Origin: an archaeon
GTDB taxonomy: Archaea > Asgardarchaeota > Thorarchaeia > Thorarchaeales > Thorarchaeaceae
DNA: 45,461 bases
Assembly: GCA_024276825.1 (NCBI GenBank)
Contig: JAJRWI010000018.1
Span: 1-45,461, forward strand
Reading direction: 5' to 3'
The notes below the pieces were generated by a model, which did no database searches, was not told where the DNA came from, and was given only the letters and a program-made list of their open reading frames with translations. Positions within the stretch are counted from its first letter, which is position 1; the number at the start of each line of letters is the position of its first letter. The position numbers and the translations under genes were made by a program. This document shows positions 3,647-38,110 of the stretch, one piece after another.

Positions 3647-3673
3647 TTTTTCATTCTCCCGTTTCTTTTGATT

Positions 3674-4660: not shown

Positions 4661-4675
4661 CTTGTATGTTCCACC

Positions 4676-6066: not shown

Positions 6067-6080
6067 CTTGTTTCACCAGG

Positions 6081-9000
6081 TCATGTTGTTGGCACGAGTG
6101 GGGTACTCTCCTCAACTCGTGGGTAGATGTCCGTGAATATCTTGATTGCTAGGTCAAACTTTTCACGGGTGATCTCATGGTTGGAGAACCGTGCTTCTTC
6201 ATATATTTGCACGAATTTCTCAACCACATCCATGTCGAGTGGGAGCACCTTGGACACGCGTTCCAAGAATTCACGTGCAGTTTCAGAGTGCATCCGCTCA
6301 GCACCCACTTTGATGCCACAGAGCTGTTCAAATGTGCGATATGCGAGGGTTATCGCGGCACTATATTTGCCGGCATCACGTAACTTCTGAATGTTTCGGA
6401 GTTTAGTCGCAAAGTCAATGGAGGGCCTTGAAACCTTTCCCTGAAACATTCCTTTCACGAAGTAGAGATAGAGCAGGACAATCACTACTGCACCTGCAAG
6501 TGCAATGAATGGTATAATATCCGTGAGTTGCATCGTAAAACCACCAGTTTGTGATATTGTTATGTGTGTTGGGTTGAGTGTGATATCAGAAACATCCGAT
6601 ACCAGGGTGACTTGGAAGTAGAAGGTTCCTTCTCTTCGTGGTGTTGAAACACCCCGGTATACGAAATGACCCGTATTGTCAGTATACACCTCTACTGTCC
6701 GGGTCCCATTAAGATCAATTCTAATGAGTCTATTTGCGATTGGAATTCGTGTTGCTGTGTCTGCAGAGTCATAGAGGTTGCCTTCAATAACCAAGGACTG
6801 GTTGGGGGCGACCACACTTGGCGTGATGGGTTCAAGATATACATCCAAGAATACATGAATCACAGTGTTTCCTGTGTTTCCAGATGAACCATTGTAGGTC
6901 GTCGTACTGTCAAATGATGCGGTTAAATAAAAGAGACCGCGTTGACTCCAAGAGGAGGGTAGGTTCAGGGTTGCTGGTGATGAGTCATATATTATAGTGG
7001 TATATAGTGGGGTTGAGTTGAAGTAGAAAGTAATGGATTGAGGCAGGATTGAAGTCCCTGAATCATCAACTAGTCTAACAATAACCTCAAAGGCTTCGCC
7101 AGGCATTATGTCATGACGATTACTGAAGGACACCTCAAGTGAGGTTGTGGACATCACTGTAATGTCCAAAGAATCAGGAGTGCCAATAACGTCATAATAT
7201 GTGGCATTAGGGCTGGTACTATCAATGTCAATGCTGATTGTGTGGCCCCCAAGATTAAGATCGGATTGGATATCAAGGGTCACTGTGAATGATCCGTCCG
7301 TGTTGGTTGTAAATGTAAATTGATCCACACCATCTAAAGTTAGAACGAGAGGAATGTCAGCACCGAAGCCATAACTGTTCCCTGCCCACCCAGAAATGGC
7401 GATAGATGTTCCCCTGAATACTGTTGTGTCATCCAATGGGTCAAGTGTGAGTTCTACAGCATCATACACATCAATGGTGATGATTGCAGTCATGTTGTAT
7501 TCAATGTCTTGACGTAGAGTCCGGTCCACTTCGACGTAGAAATCGTTGGCACCAAGGACATGGCTTTCGTTGAGCGAATAATAGAACTCGAAATACCCGT
7601 TGACTACATCATCAATTGTGACTGAGTCGACTACATGAGCGTTCCATACTAAGTTTACCACATAGCCGACCATTGCAGATCCATTCAATGAGAAGGTCAG
7701 ATTTCCATATATGTGGACTGTGTCACCACGATATAGTGGACTGGGAGCTGTGTAGTCCGACTCGAGGTTCACTGGAACATATTCAATGGAGATTGTGATA
7801 ATTCCAGAATAACCTGGTTGAATATAGCTCTTGTTGGGGGCACAATAGGCCATTATGTCAGTTGAGCTCACTGGTGTGTCATCAGGAATCGCAAAGTCAA
7901 ATTGATACCAACCTGAGGCATCGGTCACTATAGTGGTTATGTCAATCCAGCCTTCAGAGTCTGTGGAGTGATCCCACATAAGTGTGACACTGGCCCATGC
8001 ATAAGGAGTGCCGTTGTCCAGATACACATAGCCAGATATGTTAAGTCTATCATCAAGATAAGCTGTTGGTGATGGGTCAACGATAATAGTCCAAACAAGT
8101 GTATATGCAGTGATTGAGATTGAGAGTGGAGAGGTAGTAGAGCCAGATATCCAGTTCACATTTGAAACAAACTCTAGCGTGATATCATAGGCTCCAAGTG
8201 TGGTGTTTTCAGGGATCACCCATCGGAGGATGAACTGCCCATTTTGTAACGTTGTATTTGAGCCAATAAATGATCCACCAAAATACACATTGACTGCTGC
8301 ATTATAATAGGGTGTTGGACCAGATGAGTAGAATAGTGATGCATTAATCAGCAAGGTTTCTGTCGGGTGATAATTCAGTCCTGTTTCAATCTGAAATGAT
8401 GAAAACAGGGTAGCCCATCGTTTCAGCGTGACCGTTTGTGATGGTGATGTCGTATTGTAGAAGCTCACATTGCCTGACCATGTTGCAAATATGTCTGCAG
8501 TGAGAATTGTGAATTCGTCCATTCCGGAATATGTTGTGGAAAACTGGCCAGATGAGTTGGTGAACACCCAGCCAATATTGATCGTTGTACCATTGCCAAA
8601 ATTCCACCAGAGAGTTATGTTGGCATTCCTGATAGCACTGCTATTATGCTGAAATATCAGGGATCCTGTAATCTGGATTGTTTCATTGAGATATTGTGTC
8701 AGGGGAGAGGGGGCTATGGAGAGCGTAGCACTGTAGAGGGTTATTGAGATGCTGGTTGAAGAAGATGTTGCATTGTTCCATAATGGATTTGTGTTTATGA
8801 ACTGTGCCTGAATTAACACCATAACATCCATGTCTGCCCCTGGAGTGAGATTATAGTAAAAGTTGAAATAGCCAGTACTATTGGTGATGTAGCCATAGTA
8901 GGTTGTCTGGGAGCCATCATTCCAGATTATGTCAATAGGTTGTCCAGCAAGGGGAGAACCGTTTACCTGATAGGTCAATTGCCCATATACATGTACTACT

Positions 9001-12000
9001 TCATCAATGTAATAGGTGCTTGAGTCAGTAGTCAATGTCAGCAGGAATGAATATCGATCAATACTGATGGTCAGTGTAGATGAGGTGGCATTGTCCCACA
9101 TCACATTATTATTATTGAAGGTGGCCCAGACATCAATAAATCCAACTTTATCATTAAGCGAGCAGTTATAGAAGAACTCAAAGTATCCACTCCCATTTGT
9201 GTAATATGGCCCGTAGATAATTTCTGTCCCATTATTCCAATGAATCATTACTGGTTGCCCGCTGAGCGGCGTGCCATTATGTTGATACGTCAGAAAGCCC
9301 CAGAAATGCGCGACCTCATCCAGGTGGTATAATGTTGAATTGGAGAGCAGGCTCAAGTCGAACTGGTATCTGATTAGATTTACGGTTCTGTTCAGAGACT
9401 GGGCATTGTCCCATAATGGGTCCGAACTCAAGTACTCTGCCCATATGTAAACTGCACCCAAAGCGTCATTCAGGGTCAAGTTATATAGAAATAGGAATCC
9501 ACCTGTGCTGTTTGTGTACTTGATGTATTGATATGTGTTAGTTGCATTTCGATAATAGATAGTGATCATCTCGCCTACTGCAGGCTTTGTACCTTGATTG
9601 AATATCAAGGTGCCCGAGAACTGTATGACCTCATCAAGATGGACCGTGTTTGATGCAACATCAGCATCCAATGTGAGCTGATATAATTGCGAGATGATGA
9701 CCAAGGTGTCAGTCGCATTATCTATTGACTTGTTGAGAGATGTAAATGAGAAGGTGATTGTAATGGTCGAAGGGTCATCATTTGCTAATGAGAAGTTGTA
9801 ATAGAAATTGAACCAACCAGACGAGTTTGTTGTCAATTGATAGATTGGTGTTTTGGTTCCATTGTCCCATGTCAGATACACAATCTGTCCAGTCAGTGGA
9901 ATGCCGCCTTCACGTGTCAATTGCCCAAAAATATATGCGGTTTCATTAAGATGATAGTAAGTTGAGTTTGAGAAGGAGGCAATATAGGAGTCATATACTG
10001 TGACGTTGAGGAGCGCTATTGGAGAGAGAGCATCACCGTATAACACGGAGGGAGATACAAATTCAGCCCACACATCGACAATTTCTACCAAGTGATTAAT
10101 AGGCACTTGATATTGGAAGCTATAAGTCCCCAGACCAGAACTCCAGACAACAGTCAGATTCTCTATGTGTGTACTATTGTCCCACCATATGGTCAAGGGT
10201 ACATTTGCAAGTACTGATGAGTTTTCAGGCACCAAGATGGTGCCATAGATTGTGACATTCTCGCCTCGGATGACTGGATTTGTATCGAAGTTTATGGTTA
10301 CATCCACAGCCCATTTTGCAACGGTGATTGTCAGATTATTAGACAGACTTGGCTGCCAGATAGGATCACCAGGACCAAACTCGGTCCAATAGGTCACATC
10401 ACCCTCATAATCATCTGGGACTTGAAAGTATATCACATAGTACCCAGTGGAGTCTGTTGTGTTGGAGCCAAGGACAGATGTAGTGATTCCATTGTCCCAG
10501 TAAAGGTTAATGATCTTGCCAGCCAGACCACTACCATTTGCTTGGATGGTCAGATATCCTGAAACACTCATAGTTTCATTTAGATGTACAATGCTCGGCG
10601 CAATTGGGTCCGATGTAATGCTCAGCTGAGTAGAACCACTTCTAATGATGATTTCAATCGTGCTGCTAGAGTTACTTGAGATGTGATCCATCGTTGAAGT
10701 CCAATTGACATACACATAATATGTCCCATTTGCAGTATCAACAGGAATCACATAGGTATCATTGAAGGAGCCTGTTGCATCAGTAAGGGTTGTATCAACA
10801 ATAGTGTTACCTATCACAAAGTTGATCGTTTCACCGGTAGACAGGGGGGTTCCATTAAGAAGGTAGGCAGTCCCGCTATACTCCAAAGAACTCCCAGCAA
10901 ACAGGTCAGTGGGGTTCACTACAAGATTGAATCCAACCGTTCCCCACACATCTACTGTTGAGTTATCAGAGGATCGCCCAGGCAAAATAACTGGTAGACC
11001 ATTCTCATCATACTCGCCAGCATAAGAGGCCCAGACTTCATGAAGGCCTGTAGTCACAAGTGGACTCATTGGATCAAGATAGTATACCAGTTCATAGGTC
11101 CCATCAGATTGAATAGTTGCATTACCAATAAACGCATCATCCCACATTATCTGGACCCATTTATTAGTAAGGTCGTTTCCATTTACAGGTTGACCACCAA
11201 CGGTCATTGTACCATGAATTCGCAGATTGTCAGTCCAATAGGCTGTATAATTGTCCCAGCCATTTGCAAGATTGACATCAAACGTCTGAGCAAGAACGAA
11301 GTCGGAATAGACCGCATCTATTTGGTCATCCATGCTTATTGTGTGTGTGTTATATGGATTTGCCTGTGCAACTGCATTCACTGTCGTATAATTGATCACG
11401 GTGCCAGCTGGCGATTGCCATGTTGCAGAAATGATATGGATTCCAACTGATGCATTAAGTGGAAATGCATAGGTTATTGTTGCATTGGGGATTGGAGTCC
11501 CTGCGGGGTCTATTGCAACAGTTCCCATCATAGTGCTATCAGTGAGATCAAAGAATGTGATGTTCTCGGGGGTCACAACGGGCAACCCCTCAACGAAGAT
11601 TGCAGCAGTCAAGGTAAATTGGTTACCTACAAGTGCCCAAGTGGGGGGTCCAACAAGCAGAGTGACGTTCCCTATATTTTGATTCTCAGGAGTTTCACCG
11701 CCCCCCATGCTAGGAGGTAGTCCCATTGGCACAACTTGGATCCATTCGCCGCCCCCAGTAGACAGTGGAATGTAGACCTCCACCCAGAACATCATATGAC
11801 GAATTCGTATTATTCTCTGTCCTGACTCGGAGTCACCAAGTGCATAACCTGTGACAAGGCGCGCGGGAATCCCTAGCTGGCGCATATATACACAGTAAGC
11901 TGTGGCAAAGTCTTGAGGCAGACCACCGCCTCGTTGCAGGAACCAGTCAGTGACCTCTTGTCCCTCAGCTGGTCGGTCTTGGGTGTCCATTATCAGTTCA

Positions 12001-12866
12001 AAGTTTGACTTGAAATATAGATCAACTGCCATTGCCGTTTCATATGCAGTTGAACCCACATTTTCGAACTGTGCAATGTCATCAAGAACTGCCTGAGTAA
12101 GTGTCACACCATCAAGACTTGCCCAAGTCTGTTGAATGGAGAGAGGAGCCTGATCACCAGGAAGTGCATTTGCCTTGATAGCATCAAGGTCTTGGTTGAC
12201 GTAGGTCACATCATAGCTGATAAGAACATTATCTGTTGCGGAACCCTCAATGAGTGGCTTGAAGATTGCAGAACCATATTCATCAGTTTCAAGAGTGTAG
12301 TCGACCAATAGAGATGAAGGATAACTCCGAAATGAGCCTTCAATTATCTGGATGTCTGGGAATAATGTGGGCAATTGGATCTCACCTGTAGTTGCCCCAC
12401 CAGTAACGTTCATGTAGACTGTGTATATTGTGTTGCCCTGACTGATTGCTTCGGATCTACTGATTGTGCCCAATGGGGTCTGGGATCCAGTTATGGTCTT
12501 GTGCCAACCAGATCCGTCATAATCGTCGTAACTACTACTCCTCCATAATTGCGGCGGTTCTGCAGGATCAACAATAAACAGAACTGTTTCTAGATTATTG
12601 AGTAGTTCGTCGGGTAAGGGTTGGTCCAGTTGAATGTCGGTATAGTTCACATTATCGAACCAGTTTGCACGACCGCCAGCCCATTGAATATTATATGGCC
12701 AAGGCTCAATAGAACTGTATTCTTCATGTGGAGAATATATTCTGACCATATTTCCCTGAACAAGAACAAAGCTAACTGTTGCCCAAGCTAACGCTGCAAT
12801 GAGGAAAATGGAGCTTAGAATGGTCCAAATACTCATCCGCCGTTTAGTTTTTGCCTGAGCACTCAA
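6081..12866 (-). CDS. Giant (~2260 aa) surface protein: signal/TM, transglutaminase-like domain (degenerate triad), ~16 Ig-like repeats, TM, DUF4129
   Basis: WRSSSYDDYDGSGW; DFATAYCVYMRQLGIPARLVTGY; WVEVY; ~100-aa beta-rich repeats with many NxS/T sequons; C-terminal TM then ETAREF...YEEARFS. Start placed at TTG 12866 (GAGGT upstream, basic N-region) rather than 12998. Confidence 0.88.
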   Translation of the reverse strand: MSAQAKTKRRMSIWTILSSIFLIAALAWATVSFVLVQGNMVRIYSPHEEYSSIEPWPYNIQWAGGRANWFDNVNYTDIQLDQPLPDELLNNLETVLFIVDPAEPPQLWRSSSYDDYDGSGWHKTITGSQTPLGTISRSEAISQGNTIYTVYMNVTGGATTGEIQLPTLFPDIQIIEGSFRSYPSSLLVDYTLETDEYGSAIFKPLIEGSATDNVLISYDVTYVNQDLDAIKANALPGDQAPLSIQQTWASLDGVTLTQAVLDDIAQFENVGSTAYETAMAVDLYFKSNFELIMDTQDRPAEGQEVTDWFLQRGGGLPQDFATAYCVYMRQLGIPARLVTGYALGDSESGQRIIRIRHMMFWVEVYIPLSTGGGEWIQVVPMGLPPSMGGGETPENQNIGNVTLLVGPPTWALVGNQFTLTAAIFVEGLPVVTPENITFFDLTDSTMMGTVAIDPAGTPIPNATITYAFPLNASVGIHIISATWQSPAGTVINYTTVNAVAQANPYNTHTISMDDQIDAVYSDFVLAQTFDVNLANGWDNYTAYWTDNLRIHGTMTVGGQPVNGNDLTNKWVQIMWDDAFIGNATIQSDGTYELVYYLDPMSPLVTTGLHEVWASYAGEYDENGLPVILPGRSSDNSTVDVWGTVGFNLVVNPTDLFAGSSLEYSGTAYLLNGTPLSTGETINFVIGNTIVDTTLTDATGSFNDTYVIPVDTANGTYYVYVNWTSTMDHISSNSSSTIEIIIRSGSTQLSITSDPIAPSIVHLNETMSVSGYLTIQANGSGLAGKIINLYWDNGITTSVLGSNTTDSTGYYVIYFQVPDDYEGDVTYWTEFGPGDPIWQPSLSNNLTITVAKWAVDVTINFDTNPVIRGENVTIYGTILVPENSSVLANVPLTIWWDNSTHIENLTVVWSSGLGTYSFQYQVPINHLVEIVDVWAEFVSPSVLYGDALSPIALLNVTVYDSYIASFSNSTYYHLNETAYIFGQLTREGGIPLTGQIVYLTWDNGTKTPIYQLTTNSSGWFNFYYNFSLANDDPSTITITFSFTSLNKSIDNATDTLVIISQLYQLTLDADVASNTVHLDEVIQFSGTLIFNQGTKPAVGEMITIYYRNATNTYQYIKYTNSTGGFLFLYNLTLNDALGAVYIWAEYLSSDPLWDNAQSLNRTVNLIRYQFDLSLLSNSTLYHLDEVAHFWGFLTYQHNGTPLSGQPVMIHWNNGTEIIYGPYYTNGSGYFEFFYNCSLNDKVGFIDVWATFNNNNVMWDNATSSTLTISIDRYSFLLTLTTDSSTYYIDEVVHVYGQLTYQVNGSPLAGQPIDIIWNDGSQTTYYGYITNSTGYFNFYYNLTPGADMDVMVLIQAQFINTNPLWNNATSSSTSISITLYSATLSIAPSPLTQYLNETIQITGSLIFQHNSSAIRNANITLWWNFGNGTTINIGWVFTNSSGQFSTTYSGMDEFTILTADIFATWSGNVSFYNTTSPSQTVTLKRWATLFSSFQIETGLNYHPTETLLINASLFYSSGPTPYYNAAVNVYFGGSFIGSNTTLQNGQFILRWVIPENTTLGAYDITLEFVSNVNWISGSTTSPLSISITAYTLVWTIIVDPSPTAYLDDRLNISGYVYLDNGTPYAWASVTLMWDHSTDSEGWIDITTIVTDASGWYQFDFAIPDDTPVSSTDIMAYCAPNKSYIQPGYSGIITISIEYVPVNLESDYTAPSPLYRGDTVHIYGNLTFSLNGSAMVGYVVNLVWNAHVVDSVTIDDVVNGYFEFYYSLNESHVLGANDFYVEVDRTLRQDIEYNMTAIITIDVYDAVELTLDPLDDTTVFRGTSIAISGWAGNSYGFGADIPLVLTLDGVDQFTFTTNTDGSFTVTLDIQSDLNLGGHTISIDIDSTSPNATYYDVIGTPDSLDITVMSTTSLEVSFSNRHDIMPGEAFEVIVRLVDDSGTSILPQSITFYFNSTPLYTTIIYDSSPATLNLPSSWSQRGLFYLTASFDSTTTYNGSSGNTGNTVIHVFLDVYLEPITPSVVAPNQSLVIEGNLYDSADTATRIPIANRLIRIDLNGTRTVEVYTDNTGHFVYRGVSTPRREGTFYFQVTLVSDVSDITLNPTHITISQTGGFTMQLTDIIPFIALAGAVVIVLLYLYFVKGMFQGKVSRPSIDFATKLRNIQKLRDAGKYSAAITLAYRTFEQLCGIKVGAERMHSETAREFLERVSKVLPLDMDVVEKFVQIYEEARFSNHEITREKFDLAIKIFTDIYPRVEESTPLVPTT

Positions 12867-13019
12867 TGATTCATACCTCGGAACATAACGTTTTATGGAC
12901 TTTACAATAAATCGTATTGAGCTATTCAATATCAGAATTGATATTTGCATATTAAGACTTTCTTGGATTAGTTGCATCCAATTAATCGACAACTTCAAGA
13001 TTCAGGTGGTTCATTATTG

Positions 13020-15523: not shown

Positions 15524-16495
15524 GTGTCAAGGAAAGAGATGAGAGAGAAGGCAAAGGCGATTGCAAAAAAGCATGGATATCTTCCATATATGATAGAGAG
15601 GTATCTCTCACTCTGGGGCGAGGAGGAAACCCTGCAGTTCATTGATGCCTGTGAAAGGCCAATAAGGACAGCAATCAGGGTCAATACGTTAAGGACATCA
15701 ATAGACGAAACAATTGCAAGGCTTGATAAAAAAGGGGTCAATCTTGAAAGGGTCCCATGGCTCGAGGAGGGGTTCTATGCTGAGTTTGCAAATGTGTCGT
15801 CTGGCGCTCTTTTTGAACACCTGCTAGGGTTCTATTATGTCCAAGGCATTCCATCGATGAGTGTGGTGAGGACCCTAGACCCGAAACCAGGAGAGATTGT
15901 ATTCGACCTTGCTGCTGCCCCTGGTGGAAAGACCACTCATATCGCCCAGTTGATGAATAATGAGGGGATGCTGATAGCGATAGAGCAAGACAAGAAGAGA
16001 GTTTCAACGTTGGTGGGTAATATTCATAGATGTGGTGTAACAAACACTTTGGTGCTTAGAGGGGATGCAAAAAAGATTAGCACACTTGAGATTGTTCCCG
16101 ATAGAATACTTCTTGATGCTCCGTGTTCAGGAGAGGGACTGATACCAATTGACCCAACAAGAAAGACCAGTAAGACGATGGCAGACATTCGTTATTGTGC
16201 GACAAAACAGGATGAGTTGTTAGAGGCAGCTATTTCAAGTCTGCGTCCTGGGGGAACAATTGTCTATTCTACATGTTCAATCGCTCCCGAAGAGAATGAG
16301 ATTGTCATTGATGATCTGTTATCCAAGCATCCAGAGGTGAAAATTGTGCCAATCGGGCTGGAGTTTGGAGTACCAGCATATACCAAGCCTTATGGACTAA
16401 TGCTTGATGAGTCTATTGCACTTGCAAGAAGATTCCTTCCTCATATTCATGGCCTAGAAGGATTCTTCATCTGTAAGATGGTCAAGGAGGAATGA
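15524..16495 (+). CDS. NOL1/NOP2/Sun family RNA m5C methyltransferase
   Basis: RVNTLR, DLAAAPGGKTT, LLDAPCSGEG, YSTCS, EENE, EGFF. Confidence 0.95.
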   Translation: MSRKEMREKAKAIAKKHGYLPYMIERYLSLWGEEETLQFIDACERPIRTAIRVNTLRTSIDETIARLDKKGVNLERVPWLEEGFYAEFANVSSGALFEHLLGFYYVQGIPSMSVVRTLDPKPGEIVFDLAAAPGGKTTHIAQLMNNEGMLIAIEQDKKRVSTLVGNIHRCGVTNTLVLRGDAKKISTLEIVPDRILLDAPCSGEGLIPIDPTRKTSKTMADIRYCATKQDELLEAAISSLRPGGTIVYSTCSIAPEENEIVIDDLLSKHPEVKIVPIGLEFGVPAYTKPYGLMLDESIALARRFLPHIHGLEGFFICKMVKEE

Positions 16496-16498
16496 GAG

Positions 16499-17038
16499 AT
16501 GCCAGTAGAACTCGTGGACCCAGTGGAATGGTCGAAGATAAGAGAAACCATAGACGATGAGTTTGGTCCTGGGACCACTCAGGGCTTGCGGGGAAATCTT
16601 GCACCTGTGGTCATCAGATCAGAACAGTCCAACTCATACTATCTCATCCCAATGGTGTGGATGAAACAACTGGAGATCCAACTACAAGACTTTGAGGTCA
16701 GGTCAATTGGGATATGGCTTGGTGATAGGGTCAAGGAACAGTTCCGGGTGGGATTGCCTGTCATCGAAAAGTTAGGTAGATTGACCAGAAACAGGATTAT
16801 TGTATCAAGAAGAGGTGCAGAGTCATTCACCTATGGCCGAAGTATTCTCAAAGAGTCGCTTGTAAAGATCCCAAATGGTCTCAGACGCGGCCAAAAGGTC
16901 GTGGTCTATAATGAAGAGGGTGACTGCTTGGGTCTTGCATCTCTTACTGTGGACTATGACAGAGTTGATAGACTACAACCCGACCGCCTTGTGGCAAAGA
17001 ACCTCACAGACATTGGGCTATACATCAGGTACTATTAA
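16499..17038 (+). CDS. nip7: NIP7-like PUA-domain ribosome biogenesis protein
   Basis: AESFTYGRSI...VVVYNEEGDCLG...DIGLYIR; 3 nt downstream of the Nop2 homolog. Confidence 0.8.
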   Translation: MPVELVDPVEWSKIRETIDDEFGPGTTQGLRGNLAPVVIRSEQSNSYYLIPMVWMKQLEIQLQDFEVRSIGIWLGDRVKEQFRVGLPVIEKLGRLTRNRIIVSRRGAESFTYGRSILKESLVKIPNGLRRGQKVVVYNEEGDCLGLASLTVDYDRVDRLQPDRLVAKNLTDIGLYIRYY

Positions 17039-17805: not shown

Positions 17806-17990
17806 TCCTCAGATGGAGAATGTAATGTGTTTCTGCTCCAAAAGACCAGAGGCCTGTGGAGCTTATAGTAGTTTGTCATATGGGACAATTGCCTCAATAT
17901 CACAGGCTTACTTTAATGATAACAAATGCTAATAGTGAACGAATTATTCTATTAATATTGAATGCGCATTCCATATGGGGTAAGAGAAGA

Positions 17991-20189
17991 TTGAGCACTC
18001 TGAGAGAACTTGAGATGGAGCGGACATCGCCCAGGCTGCTGGAGGTCCTGCGCAGGCGAGGCTTTGCCAGCCTGACTCCATTTCAAGCTGATGCAGTAGC
18101 ACAGGGAATAATGCGTCAGAGGAGCCAGATATTGATCACGTTTGATTTTGATGAGGCCTACGAGATTGGTGAGATAGCACTGCTCAATCATGTTGCGTCT
18201 GACCCCTTGACTCGCGTGATGGTCATATGTCCAAACCCGCATCATGCAGAGAAGAGGTTTCAGTCAATTAGCGTCAAGTGTCATCGTCTTGGGGTTGAAA
18301 CCACCCCAATTTTCAGGAGAAGAGCTGCCATCCGTAAGGACATCCAGTCTGGAAGAGTCATAGTCGGAACATATCAGTCCCTGAATATTGCAGTGTTGAG
18401 CCATCCTGAGTTGCTCGAGAACCTCTCAGCAGTATTGATAGAGAGGTTGGACCTCATAGGGCAGCCGGAGATTGGATCGAAGCTCGAGTCGATAATAGTG
18501 ACAATAAAGGGTCATCTGTCAGAGGTTCAATATGTTTCAGTCACACCCCCAGTTGCAGACATTGATGATCTGAGTGCATGGCTTGATTCAATAGTGGTTG
18601 AAGACCACAAGCCTGAAGTCAAACGAATATATAGTGTGAAAGCCTTTCAGGCTGCGAGCGAGTCACTTTCAACACTGTCTAATTTTGTGGTCAAGAGCAA
18701 AGGGCAGATCATGGTACTTTGTCCAAGTGATGGCTATTCTGAAAAACTGGCATTACAATTGGCAGGAGAGTTAGATGGCGGCGAGCCCATTGAGCTGGAA
18801 TTCACGCGAGAACAACGCGAAGAATTAAGAACATTGTCTTATGAGATAGCGAAAAAGTATCCAAACTGTGATATGACTGTTAAATTGAGTAGTATTATAC
18901 CAAAGGGCATTGCATTCTTTCACAAGGGCCTCTCAAGACGTCAACGAAGAATCATCTCTAAAGCTTGGGAAGAAGGACTGCTCCCAATGATTGTAATGCC
19001 CACACGTTTTGCAATTGCAAGTGGAATGCGAGCAACAGTGGTATTTCTAATGAGTGTGTTCATGCAGCCCTGGGAGAATGAGGACAGCCAGGTCATGATG
19101 ACAGAGTGGCAATTGAGCGATGTCTTACTTGCTGCAGGAAGAGAGGGACGAGACAGAGAAGGGTTTGGAATAATAGTGGTTGATTCTGATGAAGAGCGCC
19201 GACGTGTCCTTGAGAAGTACTTCATGATTAATGAGGAGGGAAACATCAGGCCACGTCTTGGTGAGGTTGATAGTACCATGGATGATCCTGAGAATGCTCA
19301 AGACTTGGTTCTAAGACAGATATGCATGGGGGCCAAGGGTGAAGACCCATTCTCTGTGATAAGCAGGACATTCTGGGCCACATCTAATCGAACTACACAT
19401 ATCACACGTGATGAAATATTAACCACTGACAATGCATCTGTTGATGCCCTAATTTCGATAAGGACCACAAAGAGCACTATAGAGAGGGCACAGAAGATTC
19501 CGGATAGCTCTGTGAGGATAGTGTCAGTGACGCCGTCCAAGGTAGAGGGGTTGATAAGGAGTTCTACAAGAAACCTTTGGCATCATGTTGCATTTCGTGC
19601 AGAAGACGGAGTTTCATGCACATGTGAGTCATGGAAGTTTCAGGGAATCAGGCGACATAGATTATGCAAACACCTTGTAAAACTGGCCACATCAGCATTG
19701 AGCGATGAAGAGGCCGGACCTTATGCACCATCTATCATCATTCAAGCACTTCGCGGACTTGAGATTCTGGGAGACCTCCAGAGAGAAGGCCTGATAATCA
19801 GAGATAAGACTGGATCCAGATGCACGGATATAGGACAGAGTGTTGTAGTATTGGGAGTTCCCATAAAGGACGCCAAGAACATCCGTAGGGCCATGATGAA
19901 GCAGCAGGGAGATCTTAAAAGGATCTTGTACAGGGTTGTGACCTCAAAGACTGGCTTTTCTGAAAATCTAGTCAGGAGAGTTTTAGACTGTCTGCCTGCA
20001 AAGAACATTGAGGAGATTGTGAGAACAACAAAGGGGCAACCAGGAATAATTGAGAACATCATAGAGGAAGTTCATTATTCCAATTTGATTCTACTGGGAC
20101 TAATGGCAAGTTATGACAGAAAGGGTCTGAATAAGGAGACCTTCGAGTTGGACCTAGCACTCAGGGAGATATTAGCAGAAATCGGTTAA
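17991..20189 (+). CDS. Hel308/Ski2-like pseudo-helicase with a SWIM zinc finger
   Basis: Q-motif LTPFQ, GIAFFHKGL and AGR remnant retained; Walker A/B substituted; CTC-x13-CKH SWIM motif. Start TTG 17991 or ATG 18015. Confidence 0.8.
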   Translation: MSTLRELEMERTSPRLLEVLRRRGFASLTPFQADAVAQGIMRQRSQILITFDFDEAYEIGEIALLNHVASDPLTRVMVICPNPHHAEKRFQSISVKCHRLGVETTPIFRRRAAIRKDIQSGRVIVGTYQSLNIAVLSHPELLENLSAVLIERLDLIGQPEIGSKLESIIVTIKGHLSEVQYVSVTPPVADIDDLSAWLDSIVVEDHKPEVKRIYSVKAFQAASESLSTLSNFVVKSKGQIMVLCPSDGYSEKLALQLAGELDGGEPIELEFTREQREELRTLSYEIAKKYPNCDMTVKLSSIIPKGIAFFHKGLSRRQRRIISKAWEEGLLPMIVMPTRFAIASGMRATVVFLMSVFMQPWENEDSQVMMTEWQLSDVLLAAGREGRDREGFGIIVVDSDEERRRVLEKYFMINEEGNIRPRLGEVDSTMDDPENAQDLVLRQICMGAKGEDPFSVISRTFWATSNRTTHITRDEILTTDNASVDALISIRTTKSTIERAQKIPDSSVRIVSVTPSKVEGLIRSSTRNLWHHVAFRAEDGVSCTCESWKFQGIRRHRLCKHLVKLATSALSDEEAGPYAPSIIIQALRGLEILGDLQREGLIIRDKTGSRCTDIGQSVVVLGVPIKDAKNIRRAMMKQQGDLKRILYRVVTSKTGFSENLVRRVLDCLPAKNIEEIVRTTKGQPGIIENIIEEVHYSNLILLGLMASYDRKGLNKETFELDLALREILAEIG

Positions 20190-22266: not shown

Positions 22267-22393
22267 ATGATGAGGGAGGCTAGAACAGAAAAATTGTCTA
22301 AGCATAAGTTTTAAAACCTCACCTAGTGGGGTTTCAAAAAGCGGGCTCTGACAGTACTCACACAGTCCGTCTAAGACAGAATGAGGTCTAAAA

Positions 22394-22549
22394 ATGCCAG
22401 TTGCAGACATTGAAAAACGAAGACTTGCACAGCACTACTTACTATACAAGTCCATATGCCGCTATTGTGGAGCCACAAACCCAATCAAGGCCAAGAAATG
22501 TCGTAAATGTAAGACTAAGGACCTCAGGCCGAAGAGACGGAAGAAGTAG
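22394..22549 (+). CDS. rpl40e: 50S ribosomal protein eL40 (51 aa; not in the ORF track)
   Basis: MPVADIEKRRLAQHYLLYKSICRYCGATNPIKAKKCRKCKTKDLRPKRRKK; GAGGT upstream. Confidence 0.95.
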   Translation: MPVADIEKRRLAQHYLLYKSICRYCGATNPIKAKKCRKCKTKDLRPKRRKK

Positions 22550-22572
22550 TCCTGCCTGCTAAAACATCTCGT

Positions 22573-22687
22573 GGGCCGGTGATCTAGTTGGCTATGATGC
22601 CGCCTTCACACGGAAAAACTGTCATGGTGCGCGTTTTTTCGGAATAAACGGCGGATATCGCGTGTTCGAGTCACGCCCGGCCCACCA
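22573..22687 (+). tRNA. tRNA-Val(CAC) with a 38-nt intron (~22611-22648), encoded CCA
   Basis: Acceptor GGGCCGG/CCGGCCC; anticodon stem CCGCC/GGCGG with loop TTCACA^C; T-arm GCGTG-TTCGAGT-CACGC. Confidence 0.93.
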
Positions 22688-22690
22688 AAA

Positions 22691-22709
22691 TGTGTGTTTT
22701 TTGTTTTTG
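22691..22709 (+). terminator. Oligo-T archaeal terminator after tRNA-Val
   Basis: TGTGTGTTTTTTGTTTTTG immediately after CCA. Confidence 0.55.
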
Positions 22710-23076
22710 CATTGTATGGTAATAATAATCTAAAGTGAGTGATTAGATCAAGAACAGATTAGAACAGGAGCAGACGAAAAAGGATCTGGTTGGATTTTTT
22801 ATAAATCTGTGGGAACTAGTGCATTTATTATGAAAATTGGATGTGGCTGGTGGATTTTATGCACAGATTCAGGAGTATTGCCAATTCCCAGTGATGGATA
22901 TTATATTAAATAGGCATTAAAAGTAACTATATGTGAGAATGCTATTGTAAATGCTATTATGGATGAGCCTAATGACGCCACATGAAGTTACCAATGAGGA
23001 GAGAATAGAGGAAATGCATATTGATGAAACTTAGTCCATCTCAAAATTATTTGTCTGCATTACTGCCATCCCCATT

Positions 23077-23637
23077 TTGATAACTATTCCTCAACTAAGT
23101 GGCTATTTTCTCTCAGAGGCTATTCTCATTACAAGATCTAAAGTAGACGAACTCATAGTTAATTATATTGGGCCGCAGTACATCAAACCCTTATTGCTAC
23201 TATTACTTGCCACGGGAATTGTTATTGGATTATCTTCAATTAGAATCTATGAGAGTAAATTGTTTCGAGATTTGAGGGATCATGGTGAAACAAGGATAAA
23301 TATGATTGGGAGAAGCTGTATTTTGCATCTGCCATATTTTGGGCTTTTTCCATTTTTATTTATCATTAGTTTTTCTGAGGTTTCATTTATGTTTACTTCA
23401 TTTACATCAATAGACTGGGGGGCAATTTCAATACTGACTTTTTCTCTCACAGGGTTTGGCTTTACCTTGGGGAGTTCATTTGCCTATGCCCTTTCACATG
23501 AGAGAACTAGAAAGTTTGCATCCAATCATAATGCGATAATTAAACTATATCGAATAAGAAATGAGGGGGTTCATTGGAAGCTAGTAATGCAAATGAGGAG
23601 TAGTTCTGCAGTGAAGGAATGTAGTAATGAAAAGTAA
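23077..23637 (+). CDS. Hypothetical membrane protein in an AT-rich segment (possibly an N-truncated remnant)
   Basis: 186 aa with 3-4 hydrophobic segments; no clear RBS; atypical composition. Confidence 0.45.
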   Translation: MITIPQLSGYFLSEAILITRSKVDELIVNYIGPQYIKPLLLLLLATGIVIGLSSIRIYESKLFRDLRDHGETRINMIGRSCILHLPYFGLFPFLFIISFSEVSFMFTSFTSIDWGAISILTFSLTGFGFTLGSSFAYALSHERTRKFASNHNAIIKLYRIRNEGVHWKLVMQMRSSSAVKECSNEK

Positions 23638-23886
23638 GATCAACTTCAGATTTAGGAGTGTGTATAATGCATCAATAATTAGCGAAATTGATGAGATCAT
23701 AGTTCAGCTTGAATGTGGATTTTGTATAGTATTATGATTTCTAGCGGTTCATGTGGAAACGAGTTTTTCTGCTAATGCTCTAATTCATTAATGATGTACT
23801 TGACATAATGTTTTTAATAATATAAGAGCGCCACCAATGTGTTTAGGTTAAATCAGGCCACCAAAAAGAGAAACAGGAGAAAGGCA

Positions 23887-24102
23887 ATGCCGAAACAAAT
23901 CTATGATGTTGAAAGATTCCTTGAGATGTCTGAGGATGCAATAGAGTGCAGAGTAAAGAGGACCAGTGAGCGGGTGAAATTGAAGCTCCGAACCACAAGA
24001 TATCTTTACACTCTGGTTGTTCCACCACAGAAAGCAGAAGAGATTCTACAGAAAGTCAAGTGCCAGATTGTTGAGGCAAGGCCAAAAACTGAAGAGGCCT
24101 AG
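23887..24102 (+). CDS. rpl38e: 50S ribosomal protein eL38
   Basis: MPKQIYD...RVKR...VKLKLRTTRYLYTLVV; ATG 23887 after AGGAG. Confidence 0.92.
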   Translation: MPKQIYDVERFLEMSEDAIECRVKRTSERVKLKLRTTRYLYTLVVPPQKAEEILQKVKCQIVEARPKTEEA

Positions 24103-25364
24103 ATGCTGACCGTATCGCCAACCTCTGGCACATGTGCTGTTTTTCCAATCTCTGTGAGGCTTTCAGCCAGAGCATCGCAAGATTCAGATTCTCCATGAAC
24201 AACATAGAATTCTGGATCTCCAGGAATGTTCTCGAGAAGGTTCAGTAGCCCATCTGCATCGGAGTGAGATGAAAGATGATGCATACGGACATCTGCCTTG
24301 ACCTTATACTTTCTATTACCTACAGTGACCTCACCTGTTGCAAGAAGCTCGGCTCCAGGAGTGTCAGGTATCTGAAAGCTGACCAATACAATAGAGTTCA
24401 GTGGGTTATCATGCATCAGTTTGAAATATAGATGAGACGCACCGCCCTTGAGCATTCCGGCAGGAGAAATCACAATACCACCGCTGTTTGCCGCTTCACG
24501 CCGTTCTCTATTGCCAGAGATGACAATGATCCGTTTCACAGCACGGGCAAAAGCCTGCGGTGAGCTTATGTATTCGGGGTGCTTCATCAAGATGTCATTT
24601 ACATTTCTCGCCAGACCATCTATGAAAATGGGATACTTGTGGGGAATCTTGTAAGACTCAAGAATGCACATTATCTCTTGGCTGCGACCGACTGCAAAGG
24701 CTGGAATCAGGACTGTACCCCCGCGTTCGAGGGTTTCGATTATTGTGTCTATAAGATCCTGTTCAATCGTGGCGCGTGGAGGGTTTCTCCTTCTTGCATA
24801 CGTACTCTCAGTCACAACAATATCATGCCGCGGAAGATTCTCTCTTGCACCAGGATTCAGGCGAGACTCATATGCGTTGAAATCGCCTGTGAACAGGATT
24901 CTCTTGCCATCCACCCGAATTGATATCATGGCACTCCCTGGAATATGCCCTGCATTGAAGAATGTCATTTCAAAATAACGGCCTATTGGAAATGTTTCCT
25001 CATACAGAGCAGCAACACTCTTCTTTTTGATGAGAGACATGTCATCACGATTAAAGGGTAATCGACCATTACTTATCTTGTACATATCACGTAACAACAG
25101 TGAACTGAGATCTCTTGTTGCGGGTGTACAGAATAGTGACGCCTCGCTGCTCTTTAGTATGATAGGTACACCACCAGAGTGATCTAAATGTGCATGAGTC
25201 AGCGCAAGTGCTTGAATGTCATCATAGGGGATTGCAGGAGGGAATGATGGGGGATTTTGTAGTTTAGTCCCATAGTCGACCACAATAGATTCATCCTGCT
25301 CTTCAATGAGGAATCCAGAGCGACCGATTTCCCTGCATGAACCCAAGAATGTGAGATGTGCCAT
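24099..25364 (-). CDS. MBL-fold beta-CASP ribonuclease (aCPSF2-like, no KH domains)
   Basis: LGSCREIGRS, THAHLDHSG, AGHIPGS, TGD, ESTY, PAFAVGRSQE, SSHSD, VHGE. Confidence 0.9.
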   Translation of the reverse strand: MAHLTFLGSCREIGRSGFLIEEQDESIVVDYGTKLQNPPSFPPAIPYDDIQALALTHAHLDHSGGVPIILKSSEASLFCTPATRDLSSLLLRDMYKISNGRLPFNRDDMSLIKKKSVAALYEETFPIGRYFEMTFFNAGHIPGSAMISIRVDGKRILFTGDFNAYESRLNPGARENLPRHDIVVTESTYARRRNPPRATIEQDLIDTIIETLERGGTVLIPAFAVGRSQEIMCILESYKIPHKYPIFIDGLARNVNDILMKHPEYISSPQAFARAVKRIIVISGNRERREAANSGGIVISPAGMLKGGASHLYFKLMHDNPLNSIVLVSFQIPDTPGAELLATGEVTVGNRKYKVKADVRMHHLSSHSDADGLLNLLENIPGDPEFYVVHGESESCDALAESLTEIGKTAHVPEVGDTVSI

Positions 25365-25605
25365 GATAAAAGCCAACCAATTGAGTTTTCAACCATTATA
25401 AAGAAAAGGCTTGTGGAATCACTGATATCATTGATGTTTCATGTTATTAGTATTATAAAATGCAATTCATGAAAAGAAGAGTAATTGTTCTAAAATTTAT
25501 AAGAATCAGTGAATAAATGAGTTAAGTTAAAAAATCGAAACCTATATCAGAAGCGCAGACCTAAAACGAAAATACTGATTGAGCGACGGCAGGGAGAGGC
25601 TTCGT

Positions 25606-26573: not shown

Positions 26574-27911
26574 TCACACACGATTGATTGGATGGTTCTT
26601 CATGATCTCTCGCATTACTATTGTTGCATATGACCCCTTTCTGAGCTTAAACTTAAACCTGAGTGCATCCTTGTAGTCCTCCACGGTAAGTCCATATGCT
26701 CTAAGGGACACAAGATGTAATCCACCTGGAGTTGAGATGTGGCGATTCTCGGAATTAAAGAAGTCCTTCAGAGAGATGTTCTCTTCAGCAAGGATGCCAA
26801 GCAGAAGATCGGTCTGTTTTGATGGAGGGAGTTTTGTAGCGTATCCGGGAACTGGTGCTGCAATACCATACTTGTCTTTTTGTACAAGGAGTGTTGATTC
26901 TTCAAGATTGCGGCTGGTAACATATAGCCATGAGTCCCGACCAGAGTGGGTTGTATCAAGTTGAATTAAAAAGTCGCCCACATGAGGTGTGTCTATCGAA
27001 AGGCCCTCATGAACTCTCATAGAGATAAGCCGGTTGAAAAGGTAGGACTGGTATGAGTGTACAAAAAGGGTCTGGACCTTGGGAGGAATTCTGAGAAGTG
27101 CATTTTTGAAATCACCTGGGTTGTTCTTCAGGTATGCTAGGACTTCTCGTTCATATCGCAGGTCCTCGGGAAGCAGTTCAATCAGGCTTGCGGTTGGTGT
27201 AAGGGTTTCGGTGAACTCCTTACGTGCAGCCTTCAATTCATCAGACTCATACGAGCTTGGAGTTGCTATCATTATTCGAATGGCAGTTTCATAGTCCTTC
27301 TTAATCATGCTCTTGCCAACAAGGTGGGTCTGTGGTCTTGTCACACCAAACCGTTGAACACCAAAATAGTTCAGAATGGGTTGTTTGGCAAGGGAGTTCA
27401 AGGCATCATAGACCATGGATGAGTCCCTCTCAATATCACGGAGTACAATTGTGAACTGGTTTCCCCAGAGATCACCGATACGGAGGGAGGTTTTAACGTA
27501 GTGAGCATTGCGGACCTCAATTTTTGACAGTCTGAGAAACCTGAGATTGTCTGCCGCCCTCGATGGAACAGTCATATGTTGCGTTGTGATTGCGCGTTTG
27601 TCCTTGAGACCTGCATAACCAACCATATGGCGCGGAATACGTAGTGATGCTGCTAATATATTCACAACATCAAAAGTAGAAAGGCCCTTTTTCTGAACAA
27701 TGAACTTGATGTACTTGGATGGTTCACCTGTGATGAGAGTCTCAGTCCAGCTATTGGCAAATGGTTGAATCTCAAGAACTTGTCCATTGAAATCTATCTC
27801 TTCCACACAGAAGTCTTCGAAATAACGTTTCAGGCGGCCGCCCAGTCCTAGAAAATCAGTCGAATAGAATTCCATCCCATAGGAGAGTTCGGTAGGATGG
27901 GCAGGCTTCAA
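26574..27911 (-). CDS. truD: tRNA pseudouridine(13) synthase TruD/Pus7
   Basis: EDFCVEE, YAGLKDKRAITTQ, GNQF, NYFGVQRFG, HSYQSYLFN, GSYAT. Confidence 0.96.
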   Translation of the reverse strand: MKPAHPTELSYGMEFYSTDFLGLGGRLKRYFEDFCVEEIDFNGQVLEIQPFANSWTETLITGEPSKYIKFIVQKKGLSTFDVVNILAASLRIPRHMVGYAGLKDKRAITTQHMTVPSRAADNLRFLRLSKIEVRNAHYVKTSLRIGDLWGNQFTIVLRDIERDSSMVYDALNSLAKQPILNYFGVQRFGVTRPQTHLVGKSMIKKDYETAIRIMIATPSSYESDELKAARKEFTETLTPTASLIELLPEDLRYEREVLAYLKNNPGDFKNALLRIPPKVQTLFVHSYQSYLFNRLISMRVHEGLSIDTPHVGDFLIQLDTTHSGRDSWLYVTSRNLEESTLLVQKDKYGIAAPVPGYATKLPPSKQTDLLLGILAEENISLKDFFNSENRHISTPGGLHLVSLRAYGLTVEDYKDALRFKFKLRKGSYATIVMREIMKNHPINRV

Positions 27912-29570: not shown

Positions 29571-29624
29571 TCCAACAACCATCTTTATGTTGAAGTACTT
29601 TAACACAGATGTGTGATTTTGATT

Positions 29625-31004
29625 ATGTCCATTGATGAACAGAGAGAATTATTGGATGAAGTAGAAACCATACTTGGTCAATATCCATTATGTGACTATT
29701 GTTTAGGGCGGCTGTTTGGTTGGCTAAGCACAGGAATGACAAACAGAAACCGTGGGACATCAATCAAGACCGTGCTTTCAATGATTGCTGATGAGAAACT
29801 GAGGAGGGGCGATGAGCAGGGTATTCAATTGATGAAAAAATTGGCTGAAAATGGGATGTTTGAGCCTGCAAGAAAACGACTGGCCAAGGAGAACATTCCA
29901 TATGACGAGAAGAGTATATGTCATCTATGCTCGATAGATGATAAGAGCATTTTCTCACGAGTTCCAAAAGTAAAAGAGATGGCAGTCCAAGCCATAGGAG
30001 CAATCGAATACAGCACATTTCTAGTAGGATCAGTTCATCCCCCAGAGTTGATTGAACGGCAAGAAGAACTTGTAGCTAGGCACAAGCTCATCAATGCTGA
30101 AACACTGAAGTCACACTTTAACCGCGAACTCGGCAGAGTTCTTCAAGAAACACTGGGCAAGGATGTAGACTTTAAACATCCAGATATTGTTGTTGTCTAT
30201 GACAGTCATAAAGACAGTGTTTCAATACAAATAAATCCGCTATTTATTGCAGGGCGCTATAAAAAACTGGTCAGGGGAATTCCTCAGAGCAGATGGGACT
30301 GCAAGAGTTGCAGGGGAAAAGGATGTGAGAAGTGCAATTTCACGGGAAGACTCTATCCTGATTCTATTTCAGAGTATGTTAGTCAACCAATATTGGAGGA
30401 GTTTAATGGATCAAGGTTCAAGTTTCATGCTGCTGGGAGAGAGGACATTGATGCTTTGATGTTGGGAACTGGAAGGCCCTTTGTTGTTGAGATTTCAAAT
30501 CCCGAGAAACGTAAAACTGACCTCAAAAAGCTCGAACATGAGATCAATCGCAGGGCCAAGGGAAAGATTGAGGTGTCTGGCCTAAAGTATTCAGAGAGGG
30601 GCTACGCTCAGAAGTTCATGCGTGAAGCATCCCTGAATGTGAAAGAGTATGAGGCAATAATCCGTGTGAAGGAAGGGATTATTCCCGATGATGCACTGTC
30701 CAAGGCATCTGAACAATTGAGTGATATTGAGATTGAACAGAGAACACCACTGCGCGTGAAGCATAGAAGAAGTGATATTATCAGGAGGAAACGGGTCTAT
30801 CAGATCAGGCTTGAACGCATTGATCATGACCGACTAAAGGGATTCTTCAAAGTACAGGGTGGTACTTACATCAAGGAGTTGATATCAGGCGATGAGGGCA
30901 GAACAAGTCCATCTGTTTCGGGAGTTCTTGGGGTCCCGTGTGTATGTGAGGAGTTAAATGTGGTCGCAATCTATTCCAAAGAGGATCCTATTGATGGCCA
31001 ATGA
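29625..31004 (+). CDS. pus10: tRNA pseudouridine(54/55) synthase Pus10
   Basis: LCDYCLGR, GRYKK...PQSRW, AAGREDID, GRPF, QRTP, GGTYIKELISGD. Confidence 0.96.
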   Translation: MSIDEQRELLDEVETILGQYPLCDYCLGRLFGWLSTGMTNRNRGTSIKTVLSMIADEKLRRGDEQGIQLMKKLAENGMFEPARKRLAKENIPYDEKSICHLCSIDDKSIFSRVPKVKEMAVQAIGAIEYSTFLVGSVHPPELIERQEELVARHKLINAETLKSHFNRELGRVLQETLGKDVDFKHPDIVVVYDSHKDSVSIQINPLFIAGRYKKLVRGIPQSRWDCKSCRGKGCEKCNFTGRLYPDSISEYVSQPILEEFNGSRFKFHAAGREDIDALMLGTGRPFVVEISNPEKRKTDLKKLEHEINRRAKGKIEVSGLKYSERGYAQKFMREASLNVKEYEAIIRVKEGIIPDDALSKASEQLSDIEIEQRTPLRVKHRRSDIIRRKRVYQIRLERIDHDRLKGFFKVQGGTYIKELISGDEGRTSPSVSGVLGVPCVCEELNVVAIYSKEDPIDGQ

Positions 31005-38004: not shown

Positions 38005-38110
38005 CGATGTTCACCTCATGTCACAATTATTCGTCAACTCAAAGCAGAAAAGACCTAGTATTATCCAGAAAACGTTTAATTCATTTACTCGGCATTGACG
38101 AGTGATACTT

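Follow-up and report, generated by a model that had tools for sequence, protein, structure and literature searches.

A stretch of 45,461 nt, here called the window, was analysed from an archaeon of the family Thorarchaeaceae (Asgardarchaeota; contig JAJRWI010000018.1 of assembly GCA_024276825.1). It carries the gene of a predicted pseudo-helicase (P0001), in which a Hel308-type helicase fold without its ATPase motifs is combined with a SWIM zinc module. The coding sequence (17991..20189, + strand) is complete, starts with TTG and encodes 732 amino acids (aa) plus a stop codon. It lies in an uninterrupted open frame from 17856 to 20189, in line with the intact open reading frame (ORF) reported in the initial annotation. 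The TTG at 17991 is the likely start, because the orthologs (733-739 aa) begin with the residues MSTLRELE at the equivalent position. Other in-frame starts are a GTG at 17856 and an ATG at 17916; the latter is the database call (757 aa) and remains an alternative, which leaves the annotated start ambiguous. The intergenic region towards the divergent PAC2 homolog covers 17806-17990, and a TATA-like AT-rich box (~17949-17960) was observed some 35 nt ahead of the TTG.

The protein is built from four Hel308-like domains and one insert, all encoded on the + strand. The RecA1-like domain (18066..18605, aa 26-205) was delimited by hhalign against canonical Hel308 and modelled by AlphaFold2 with a predicted local distance difference test score (pLDDT) of about 90. 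It contains the former Walker A motif or P-loop, now ITFDFDEAY (18135..18161, aa 49-57), and the former motif II, now ERLD (18441..18452, aa 151-154). The RecA2-like domain follows (18606..19265, aa 206-425), with motif IVa (GIAFFHKGL...QRR) kept, motif V diverged and motif VI changed to AAGR. The winged helix is split. Its helices 1 and 2 (19266..19391, aa 426-467; predicted helices 433-446 and 453-459) are colinear with Hel308 in hhalign, and they are followed by the SWIM module insert of ~120 aa (19392..19760, aa 468-590), which comprises two helices, a four-stranded sheet and further helices. Helix 3 and the wing, LQREGLI...CTDIG (19761..19826, aa 591-612), were located by the hhalign match of the C-terminal part. 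The ratchet-like helical domain 4 (19827..20186, aa 613-732) was assigned from the whole-length Foldseek match and the motif alignment.

The relation to Hel308 was evaluated at the levels of sequence, profile and predicted structure. A Pfam scan of P0001 placed SWIM at residues 540-568 with a score under the threshold (E 0.0025) and gave no other match, DEAD, Helicase_C, HHH, Sec63 and arch included. Since DEAD and Helicase_C matches are missing, helicase censuses based on Pfam overlook this family. NCBIfam Hel308 models matched residues 11-425 with E about 1e-24, well under their cut-offs; the score for NF040935 was 82.9 bits against a family cut-off of 1200, below the curated threshold. In a phmmer search of the PDB, the top match was Pyrococcus Hjm/Hel308 (2zj2, E 5e-18), and Brr2 was matched weakly (E 1e-5). 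The profile of 24 canonical Hel308 proteins was aligned by hhalign with a probability of 100 and E 3e-45, residues 2-467 of P0001 corresponding to Hel308 13-473. In the C-terminal part, residues 591-651 corresponded to Hel308 483-544 (E 1.3e-4, probability 54), a segment that comprises the third helix of the winged helix, the wing and the beginning of domain 4. The AlphaFold2 model, obtained with a 39-sequence alignment, reached a pLDDT of 81 and a predicted template modelling score (pTM) of 0.78. Over the whole length, its best Foldseek matches were Hjm/Hel308 structures (E 3e-25 to 5e-22, TM 0.61-0.72; for 2zj8/2zj5/2zj2, E 3e-25 and TM 0.65-0.72), and the POLQ helicase domain, Mtr4 and Brr2 ranked after them. 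The superfamily 2 (SF2)/Hel308 fold proposed in the initial annotation was thus returned by hhalign, AlphaFold2 and Foldseek alike. Profile alignment and predicted model together establish a full-length fold of this type, with RecA1, RecA2, winged helix and ratchet in Hel308 order. No HHH Pfam match was found for the helix-hairpin-helix (HhH) domain 5, and the protein stops ~32 residues past the ratchet motif; the canonical Hel308 of the same genome has HHH_5. The position of the Hel308 ratchet Trp is occupied by the nearly invariant Y696 and that of the ratchet Arg by N689.

The motif register was taken from three alignments, namely to Hjm, to the 24 canonical Hel308 proteins by hhalign, and a multiple alignment; the presence of the motifs was counted in a family set of 120 close homologs. 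Every catalytic change quoted in the initial annotation was found in register with Hel308. In Walker A, the canonical PTSSGKT is replaced by TFDFDEAY, with E55 for Gly, A56 for Lys and Y57 for Thr. Motif II (DEIH) reads ERLD, with R152 at the catalytic Glu and D154 at the His, and motif III (SAT) reads TPP. Motif VI (GRAGR) reads LAAGR (LLAAGR), where the first Arg is replaced and the second, R384, is retained. Not one of the 120 members has GK[ST] at the P-loop position; eight GK[ST] strings were found, all at residue 43 or 115. A DExH/Q/D box was likewise found in 0/120, and the pattern [DEN]R[LM]D[LM]IG occupies the former motif II in 115/120. As replacements affect the Lys/Thr of the P-loop, the Asp-Glu of Walker B, the whole of motif III and the leading Arg of motif VI, the alignments show canonical use of ATP to be impossible. 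The retention of the Q-motif LTPFQ and of GIAFFHKGL, also pointed out in the initial annotation, was confirmed as well: F31 and Q32 are invariant, and GIAFFHKGL aligns with Hel308 GVAFHHAGL, its Arg being kept as the invariant R319. Motif V is partly retained and otherwise diverged.

The residues that replaced the catalytic ones are themselves strongly conserved. D52, E55, R152, D154, I156 and G157 are conserved at 100%, and A56 and Y57 at 95% or above. As read from this pattern, the old ATP site is a conserved, remodelled pocket with a new invariant charged set (D52, E55, R152 and D154) and not the product of erosion, because the substituted positions rank among the most conserved of the protein. 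D52 and E55 in the P-loop, together with R152, probably occupy and lock the former nucleotide pocket, perhaps through a salt bridge.

The selective constraint on the gene was determined next to its distribution. In five ortholog pairs with unsaturated dS (0.20-0.40), the Nei-Gojobori ratio of nonsynonymous to synonymous substitution rates (dN/dS) was 0.07-0.13, that is, about 0.1. When 201 genomes of the phylum were searched in six frames, orthologs with E < 1e-140 and roughly 44-55% identity were detected in 43/43 other genomes of the same Thorarchaeal family, two of these orthologs being truncated by the end of a contig; outside that family, identity never exceeded 29%. The names of the homologs were nearly all Candidatus Thorarchaeota, and at 50% clustering the family formed a single cluster plus fragments. 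The frame was intact in every genome sampled, so that the statement of the initial annotation that the gene is not in decay holds. Taken together, the comparisons show strong purifying selection on the putatively inactive gene, which is retained in every sampled genome of one Thorarchaeal family. Mean column identity was 67%, against 65% for the orthologs of the motif-intact SWIM helicase that the same genomes encode (see below). Present-day constraint on the pseudo-helicase is thus comparable to that on a working helicase.

The SWIM module occupies a defined place. About 120 residues stand where Hel308 has ~10, between winged-helix helices 2 and 3. The insert is placed inside the winged helix because the colinear hhalign match ends at residue 467 and resumes at 591. 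Its position ahead of LQREGLI...CTDIG, as described in the initial annotation, is bracketed by the aligned blocks 2-467 and 591-651, and the coordinates given there for the CxC-x13-CxH ligands (19617..19673) were exact. These correspond to residues 543-561, with C543, C545, C559 and H561 as putative zinc ligands. The CxC...CxH signature is present in 120/120 family members. In an insert alignment of 38 diverse Asgard proteins, with and without intact motors, the four ligands were the only invariant columns. The Pfam SWIM model PF04434 scored 17.7 bits with P0001, under its gathering threshold of 19.6 (E 0.0025); 32/39 members were matched at E <= 0.01, the best with E 7.5e-5.

When the insert was folded alone (aa 478-582), a pLDDT of 93 was obtained. 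In VIA-align, this predicted model was superposed on residues 111-217 of the solved structure of ZSWIM8 (9rwz_N) as first match, with Z 8.4 and a root-mean-square deviation of 3.0 A over 91/105 residues, the runner-up having Z 3.6; the model thus agrees with the SWIM fold, in which a helix with CxH comes after beta strands. A Foldseek search of the PDB with the insert model gave nothing at E <= 0.001, and ZSWIM8 surfaced via the VIA-align re-ranking only. A hidden Markov model of the insert had no meaningful match among PDB sequences, so that no sequence similarity to any solved SWIM protein was detectable. The SWIM core has a conserved-column share of 0.45, the highest among the folded domains of P0001; together with the N-terminal 25 residues it forms the best-conserved part of the protein, and the ratchet domain is the least conserved. 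As far as signature and predicted fold are concerned, the SWIM assignment is considered sound.

The initial annotation treated the SWIM insert as a mark of the pseudo-helicase. This did not hold, as the insert instead goes back to the ancestor of a wide clade of Asgard Hel308-like helicases with intact motifs. A profile search combined with a motif table revealed some 45 Hel308-like proteins, 700-1300 residues long, whose CxC...CxH falls on the alignment position that it has in P0001. They share with P0001 the insert site in the winged helix, the four invariant ligands and a similar length (~725-850 aa); unlike the pseudo-helicase family, they have GSGKT, DEIH, SAT and GRAGRP intact and presumably work as motors. 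The named representatives of the clade were all Asgard (16/16), from Hod-, Ran-, Odin-, Jord-, Loki-, Baldr-, Heimdall- and Hel-archaeota and 'Asgardarchaeia'. Beyond these nine groups, the insert is also borne by a motif-intact paralog in Thorarchaeota.

In trees rooted on canonical Hel308, which were 'quick' searches with long branches, the SWIM-bearing proteins formed one clade with support of 99-100 in the Shimodaira-Hasegawa-like approximate likelihood ratio test (SH-aLRT). The pseudo-helicase family had a support of 100 and a stem of 1.6-1.8 substitutions per site, and was nested in a subclade (SH-aLRT 98-99) together with Hod-type (P0128/L024), Ran-type (P0131) and Odin-type (P0133/P0141) proteins. 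It is thus shown, as far as these trees resolve it, to be a long-branch offshoot of one subclade of motif-intact Asgard SWIM helicases. In the mates within the subclade, the Lys of Walker A and the Glu of Walker B are preserved, but erosion is partly under way (DETY/EECD/DEFQ; SSN/SAN/SDI; SRAGK/GRAGN). The set of eroded relatives outside Thorarchaeota comprises L024 (G044), L029 (G001), P0128, P0131, P0133, P0141 and P0149, the last of which (Odin, 593 aa) looks fully degenerate. Since these relatives show erosion in motifs II, III and VI, the motor may have been lost or weakened more than once within the subclade. The initial annotation had made its proposal depend on whether orthologs retain the Walker motifs. 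Within the family, 0/120 members do; the nearest relatives in other Asgard classes (22-29% identity), on the other hand, keep GKT and the Walker B Glu.

Three related genes were found in the genome from which the window was taken. One encodes the canonical Hel308 (L001:1468-3732:+), and another, in the window itself (38102-40759), an ASH-Ski2-like protein. The third encodes the second, motif-intact SWIM helicase (L002:484-2694:-, on contig C63), which shares 27% identity with residues 123-570 of P0001 in an alignment that also matches the SWIM motifs, and which likewise lacks an HHH match. It is unlinked to the pseudo-helicase gene, which lies on contig C7. By comparison, five Asgard genomes from outside Thorarchaeota each have one SWIM-type gene and a canonical Hel308. 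An origin of the pseudo-helicase family as a recent Thor-specific duplicate of the active paralog was considered and rejected: a tree constrained to a single clade gave p 0.0004 in the approximately unbiased (AU) test, run on a reduced set with LG+G4, on long branches and with a post hoc grouping named after the tree had been seen. A reasonable reading is that Thorarchaeal ancestors came to possess two SWIM helicases, and that a burst of change then cost one of them its motor, after which this copy came under new constraints.

The Asgard SWIM-bearing Hel308-like helicases apparently constitute an undescribed and unnamed branch. No paper combining SWIM with Hel308 in a relevant sense was found in the literature searched, and a 2024 survey of archaeal Ski2-like proteins contains Hel308, ASH-Ski2 and Brr2-like groups only (PMC10946056). 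The closest archaeal relatives of eukaryotes would thus harbour an apparently unnamed Hel308-type branch defined by a SWIM module in the winged helix, within which one lineage gave up the motor and retained the shell and the SWIM module.

Among known systems, Hel308/Hjm (2zj2/2zj8, 2va8, 2p6r; NF040935, COG1204) is the best match in both sequence and structure, with architecture and motif order in common and with the Q-motif and motif IVa present in both. In contrast to Hel308, P0001 is devoid of Walker A, DExH, SAT, a complete motif VI and the HhH domain 5, and has the 120-residue SWIM insert in its winged helix. By alignment, it keeps the Hel308 fold but fails the defining catalytic features of Hel308. 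The C-terminal cassette of Brr2/SNRNP200 is fused in tandem to an active cassette, has a Sec63 unit and still binds ATP. By analogy, it is likewise a conserved Hel308-derived unit that is no longer a motor, whereas P0001 is a stand-alone 732-aa gene product without Sec63 match or P-loop, and its sequence similarity to Brr2 is weak (E 1e-5).

The SWIM module also has known relatives. With ZSWIM8 (9rwz), the CxCxnCxH signature is common, and the predicted insert superposes on residues 111-217 of that protein. In SWIM-associated bacterial SNF2 ATPases, Makarova and colleagues reportedly found in 2002 a combination of SWIM with an SF2 core; P0001 has such a combination too. Unlike in other SWIM proteins, however, its SWIM is an internal winged-helix insert, neither terminal nor stand-alone. 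Shu2/SWS1 proteins, which partner with RAD51 paralogs, are small stand-alone SWIM proteins, whereas the SWIM of P0001 is placed inside a 732-aa helicase fold. No observation links it to Shu2/SWS1 or to the binding of RAD51 paralogs, and the parallels to SWS1/Shu and to Brr2 in the initial annotation are to be taken as analogies.

An accessory domain inserted in the winged helix is also found in Mtr4 and Ski2, in the form of the arch with its KOW (PMC10946056). This placement, compared at the level of the domain, is shared with P0001; the insert of P0001 is a SWIM zinc module and not a stalk with a KOW barrel, and it has no arch match in Pfam. Utp25 is an SF2-fold pseudo-helicase that has lost its ATPase motifs and works as a non-enzymatic assembly factor (PMC9539457). 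It resembles P0001 in this loss, but it is DEAD-box-derived, eukaryotic and without SWIM, whereas P0001 is of the Hel308 type. In summary, P0001 resembles pseudo-helicases and the inactive Brr2 cassette but is not a member of either family, because a tandem fusion, a Sec63 unit and any form of P-loop are absent from it.

The genomic context of both SWIM genes was inspected. The pseudo-helicase gene is accompanied by genes for an RsmB/F methyltransferase, a Nip7-like PUA protein, the divergent PAC2 chaperone homolog and the beta and alpha subunits of succinyl-CoA synthetase. The order PUA - PAC2 - pseudo-helicase - SucC - SucD was conserved at 11 loci of the same family. A conserved partner gene was sought at the locus, and the arrangement looks like plain family-level synteny of unrelated functions. 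No RadA paralog adjoins the pseudo-helicase gene. In five other Asgard genomes, the long ORFs beside the SWIM helicases showed no mutual similarity, and their Pfam assignments were unrelated (aconitase, ThiN, methyltransferase and DUF885). In the window, RNA-modification and -processing genes are concentrated at 15524-17038, 24099-25376, 26574-27911, 29613-31004, 32497-33396 and 35671-37584; they encode RsmB/F, the Nip7-like PUA protein, a 425-aa beta-CASP protein, TruD, Pus10, KsgA/RrnaAD and FttA/aCPSF1. The ASH-Ski2-like helicase of the window is counted with this group as well.

The active SWIM paralog (L042:11000-13210) lies in a long co-directional and partly overlapping cluster on contig C63 (L042:6139-19378, - strand). 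This cluster also encodes an XPD-like helicase, a weak AAA_25-type ATPase, a Rad51-family protein (E 2e-9), a FEN1/XPG-like nuclease and five ORFs of 148-766 aa without Pfam match. Such company ties the active paralog, and not the pseudo-helicase, to a putative role in DNA recombination or repair.

On this basis, the pseudo-helicase is proposed to be a motor-less clamp or adaptor, whose ring grips nucleic acid, whose SWIM module is offered to a partner, and which may compete with or regulate active helicases. A probability of about 0.5 is given to this interpretation. After the loss of the motor, beside a second and active SWIM helicase, the protein would have kept only jobs that are independent of ATP. 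One would be the gripping of single-stranded or branched nucleic acid by the conserved ring, via R319 and Y696; the other would be the presentation of the SWIM module as a docking surface. The outcome could be a clamp or adaptor that acts passively, or else a protein that competes with active helicases or regulates them. As a setting, DNA recombination or repair is tentatively favoured, on account of the cluster in which the active SWIM paralog is accompanied by an XPD-like helicase, a FEN1-like nuclease and a Rad51-family protein. Several observations weigh against the clamp proposal and its setting. Motifs V and Ia are diverged, Asn stands in for the ratchet Arg, and conservation is lowest in the ratchet domain, so that nucleic-acid binding could be weakened or lost. 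The neighbours of the gene carry no hint of DNA repair and the window is rich in RNA genes, and the local context is as compatible with an RNA-related role as with a DNA role. Moreover, the pseudo-helicase family and the active Thorarchaeal paralog belong to different subclades by the AU test, and their descent implies no functional link.

The divergence at motif V, motif Ia and the ratchet Arg leads to a neighbouring explanation, in which the Hel308 shell is a rigid scaffold that binds no nucleic acid, and the SWIM module and the remodelled pocket recruit or sequester a protein partner. The concentration of conservation in the SWIM core and the N-terminal 25 residues, with the ratchet domain at the other end of the scale, suits such a pure protein-protein adaptor, as does the one clear structural match of the insert, a SWIM region within the scaffold of the protein-binding receptor ZSWIM8. 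It is nevertheless thought rather unlikely, since motif IVa still has its Arg and the ratchet position an aromatic residue, both of them nearly invariant, and all four ring domains are of full length and under selection. A dedicated regulatory partner of an active helicase, either the SWIM-Hel308 paralog or the canonical Hel308, would overlap with the clamp or adaptor; it could be likened to a two-polypeptide version of the active and inactive Brr2 cassettes or to active/dead pairs of the XPF-ERCC1 type. The precedent of the C-terminal Brr2 cassette, the similar rates at which both copies evolve, and the presence of both in genomes of the family, where the five other Asgard genomes have a single SWIM-type gene, all speak in its favour. 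This partnership is nonetheless somewhat more doubtful than the pure adaptor: the two genes are unlinked (C7 and C63) and are not sister lineages, and both copies are universal in the family, so that their co-occurrence is uninformative. A complex prediction of residues 12-732 of the pseudo-helicase with residues 455-730 of the active paralog only (winged helix, SWIM and ratchet) gave a score of 0.00 against a mark of 0.32, which counts neither way.

Residual NTPase or motor activity with non-canonical residues would agree with the retained Q-motif (F31 and Q32), with R384 of motif VI and with the high conservation of the former pocket. It is judged very improbable, as neither the P-loop Lys/Thr nor the Walker B acidic pair is left, and all 120 members have the acidic D52/E55 at the phosphate-binding place and Arg for the catalytic Glu. 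A decaying or recently inactivated pseudogene without function would likewise explain why all the catalytic motifs are gone. This reading was refuted by the low dN/dS with the frame intact in all genomes, the ortholog spread throughout the family and the invariance of the replacements themselves, and practically no weight is left to it.

A more specific and quite tentative version, to which less probability is given than to either the pure adaptor or the regulatory partner, would make the pseudo-helicase the motor-less partner of a Thorarchaeal recombination machinery that includes the active SWIM-Hel308, Rad51-family proteins and nuclease. An ancestral single SWIM helicase would then have given rise, on the one hand, to a working motor and, on the other, to a regulator or clamp that needs no ATP and uses its SWIM module for docking. 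If true, this would be a prokaryotic two-gene forerunner of eukaryotic active/inactive helicase pairs (Brr2 cassettes, HELQ-RAD51-paralog and Shu-type mediators). Dead enzymes that are selected for often signal regulatory layers, and pairs of active and inactive paralogs such as the Brr2 cassettes, XPF-ERCC1 and the RAD51 paralogs typify the genome-maintenance and RNA machines of eukaryotes. P0001 is small enough to be expressed and assayed, and offers a system for the role of SWIM on a helicase and for that of a helicase ring without ATP.

Further features were observed in the window. Directly 3' of the FttA/aCPSF1 KH-beta-CASP gene (35671-37584) lies a gene for an 885-aa Ski2-like helicase (38102-40759, + strand) with a weak N-terminal PadR/winged helix-turn-helix match, probably of the Asgard ASH-Ski2 type. 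The lowest GC content of the window, 0.395, was found at 22267-24098, where the sole ORF encodes 186 aa (23077-23637) without Pfam match. On the - strand, the region 2324-12998 encodes a DUF58/VWA protein (2324-3646), a MoxR-type AAA ATPase (3674-4660) and a 2305-aa protein (6081-12998) with a transglutaminase core, MG2-like and CarboxypepD_reg-like repeats and DUF4129. By its predicted content, this region looks like a MoxR-VWA-transglutaminase surface-protein module.

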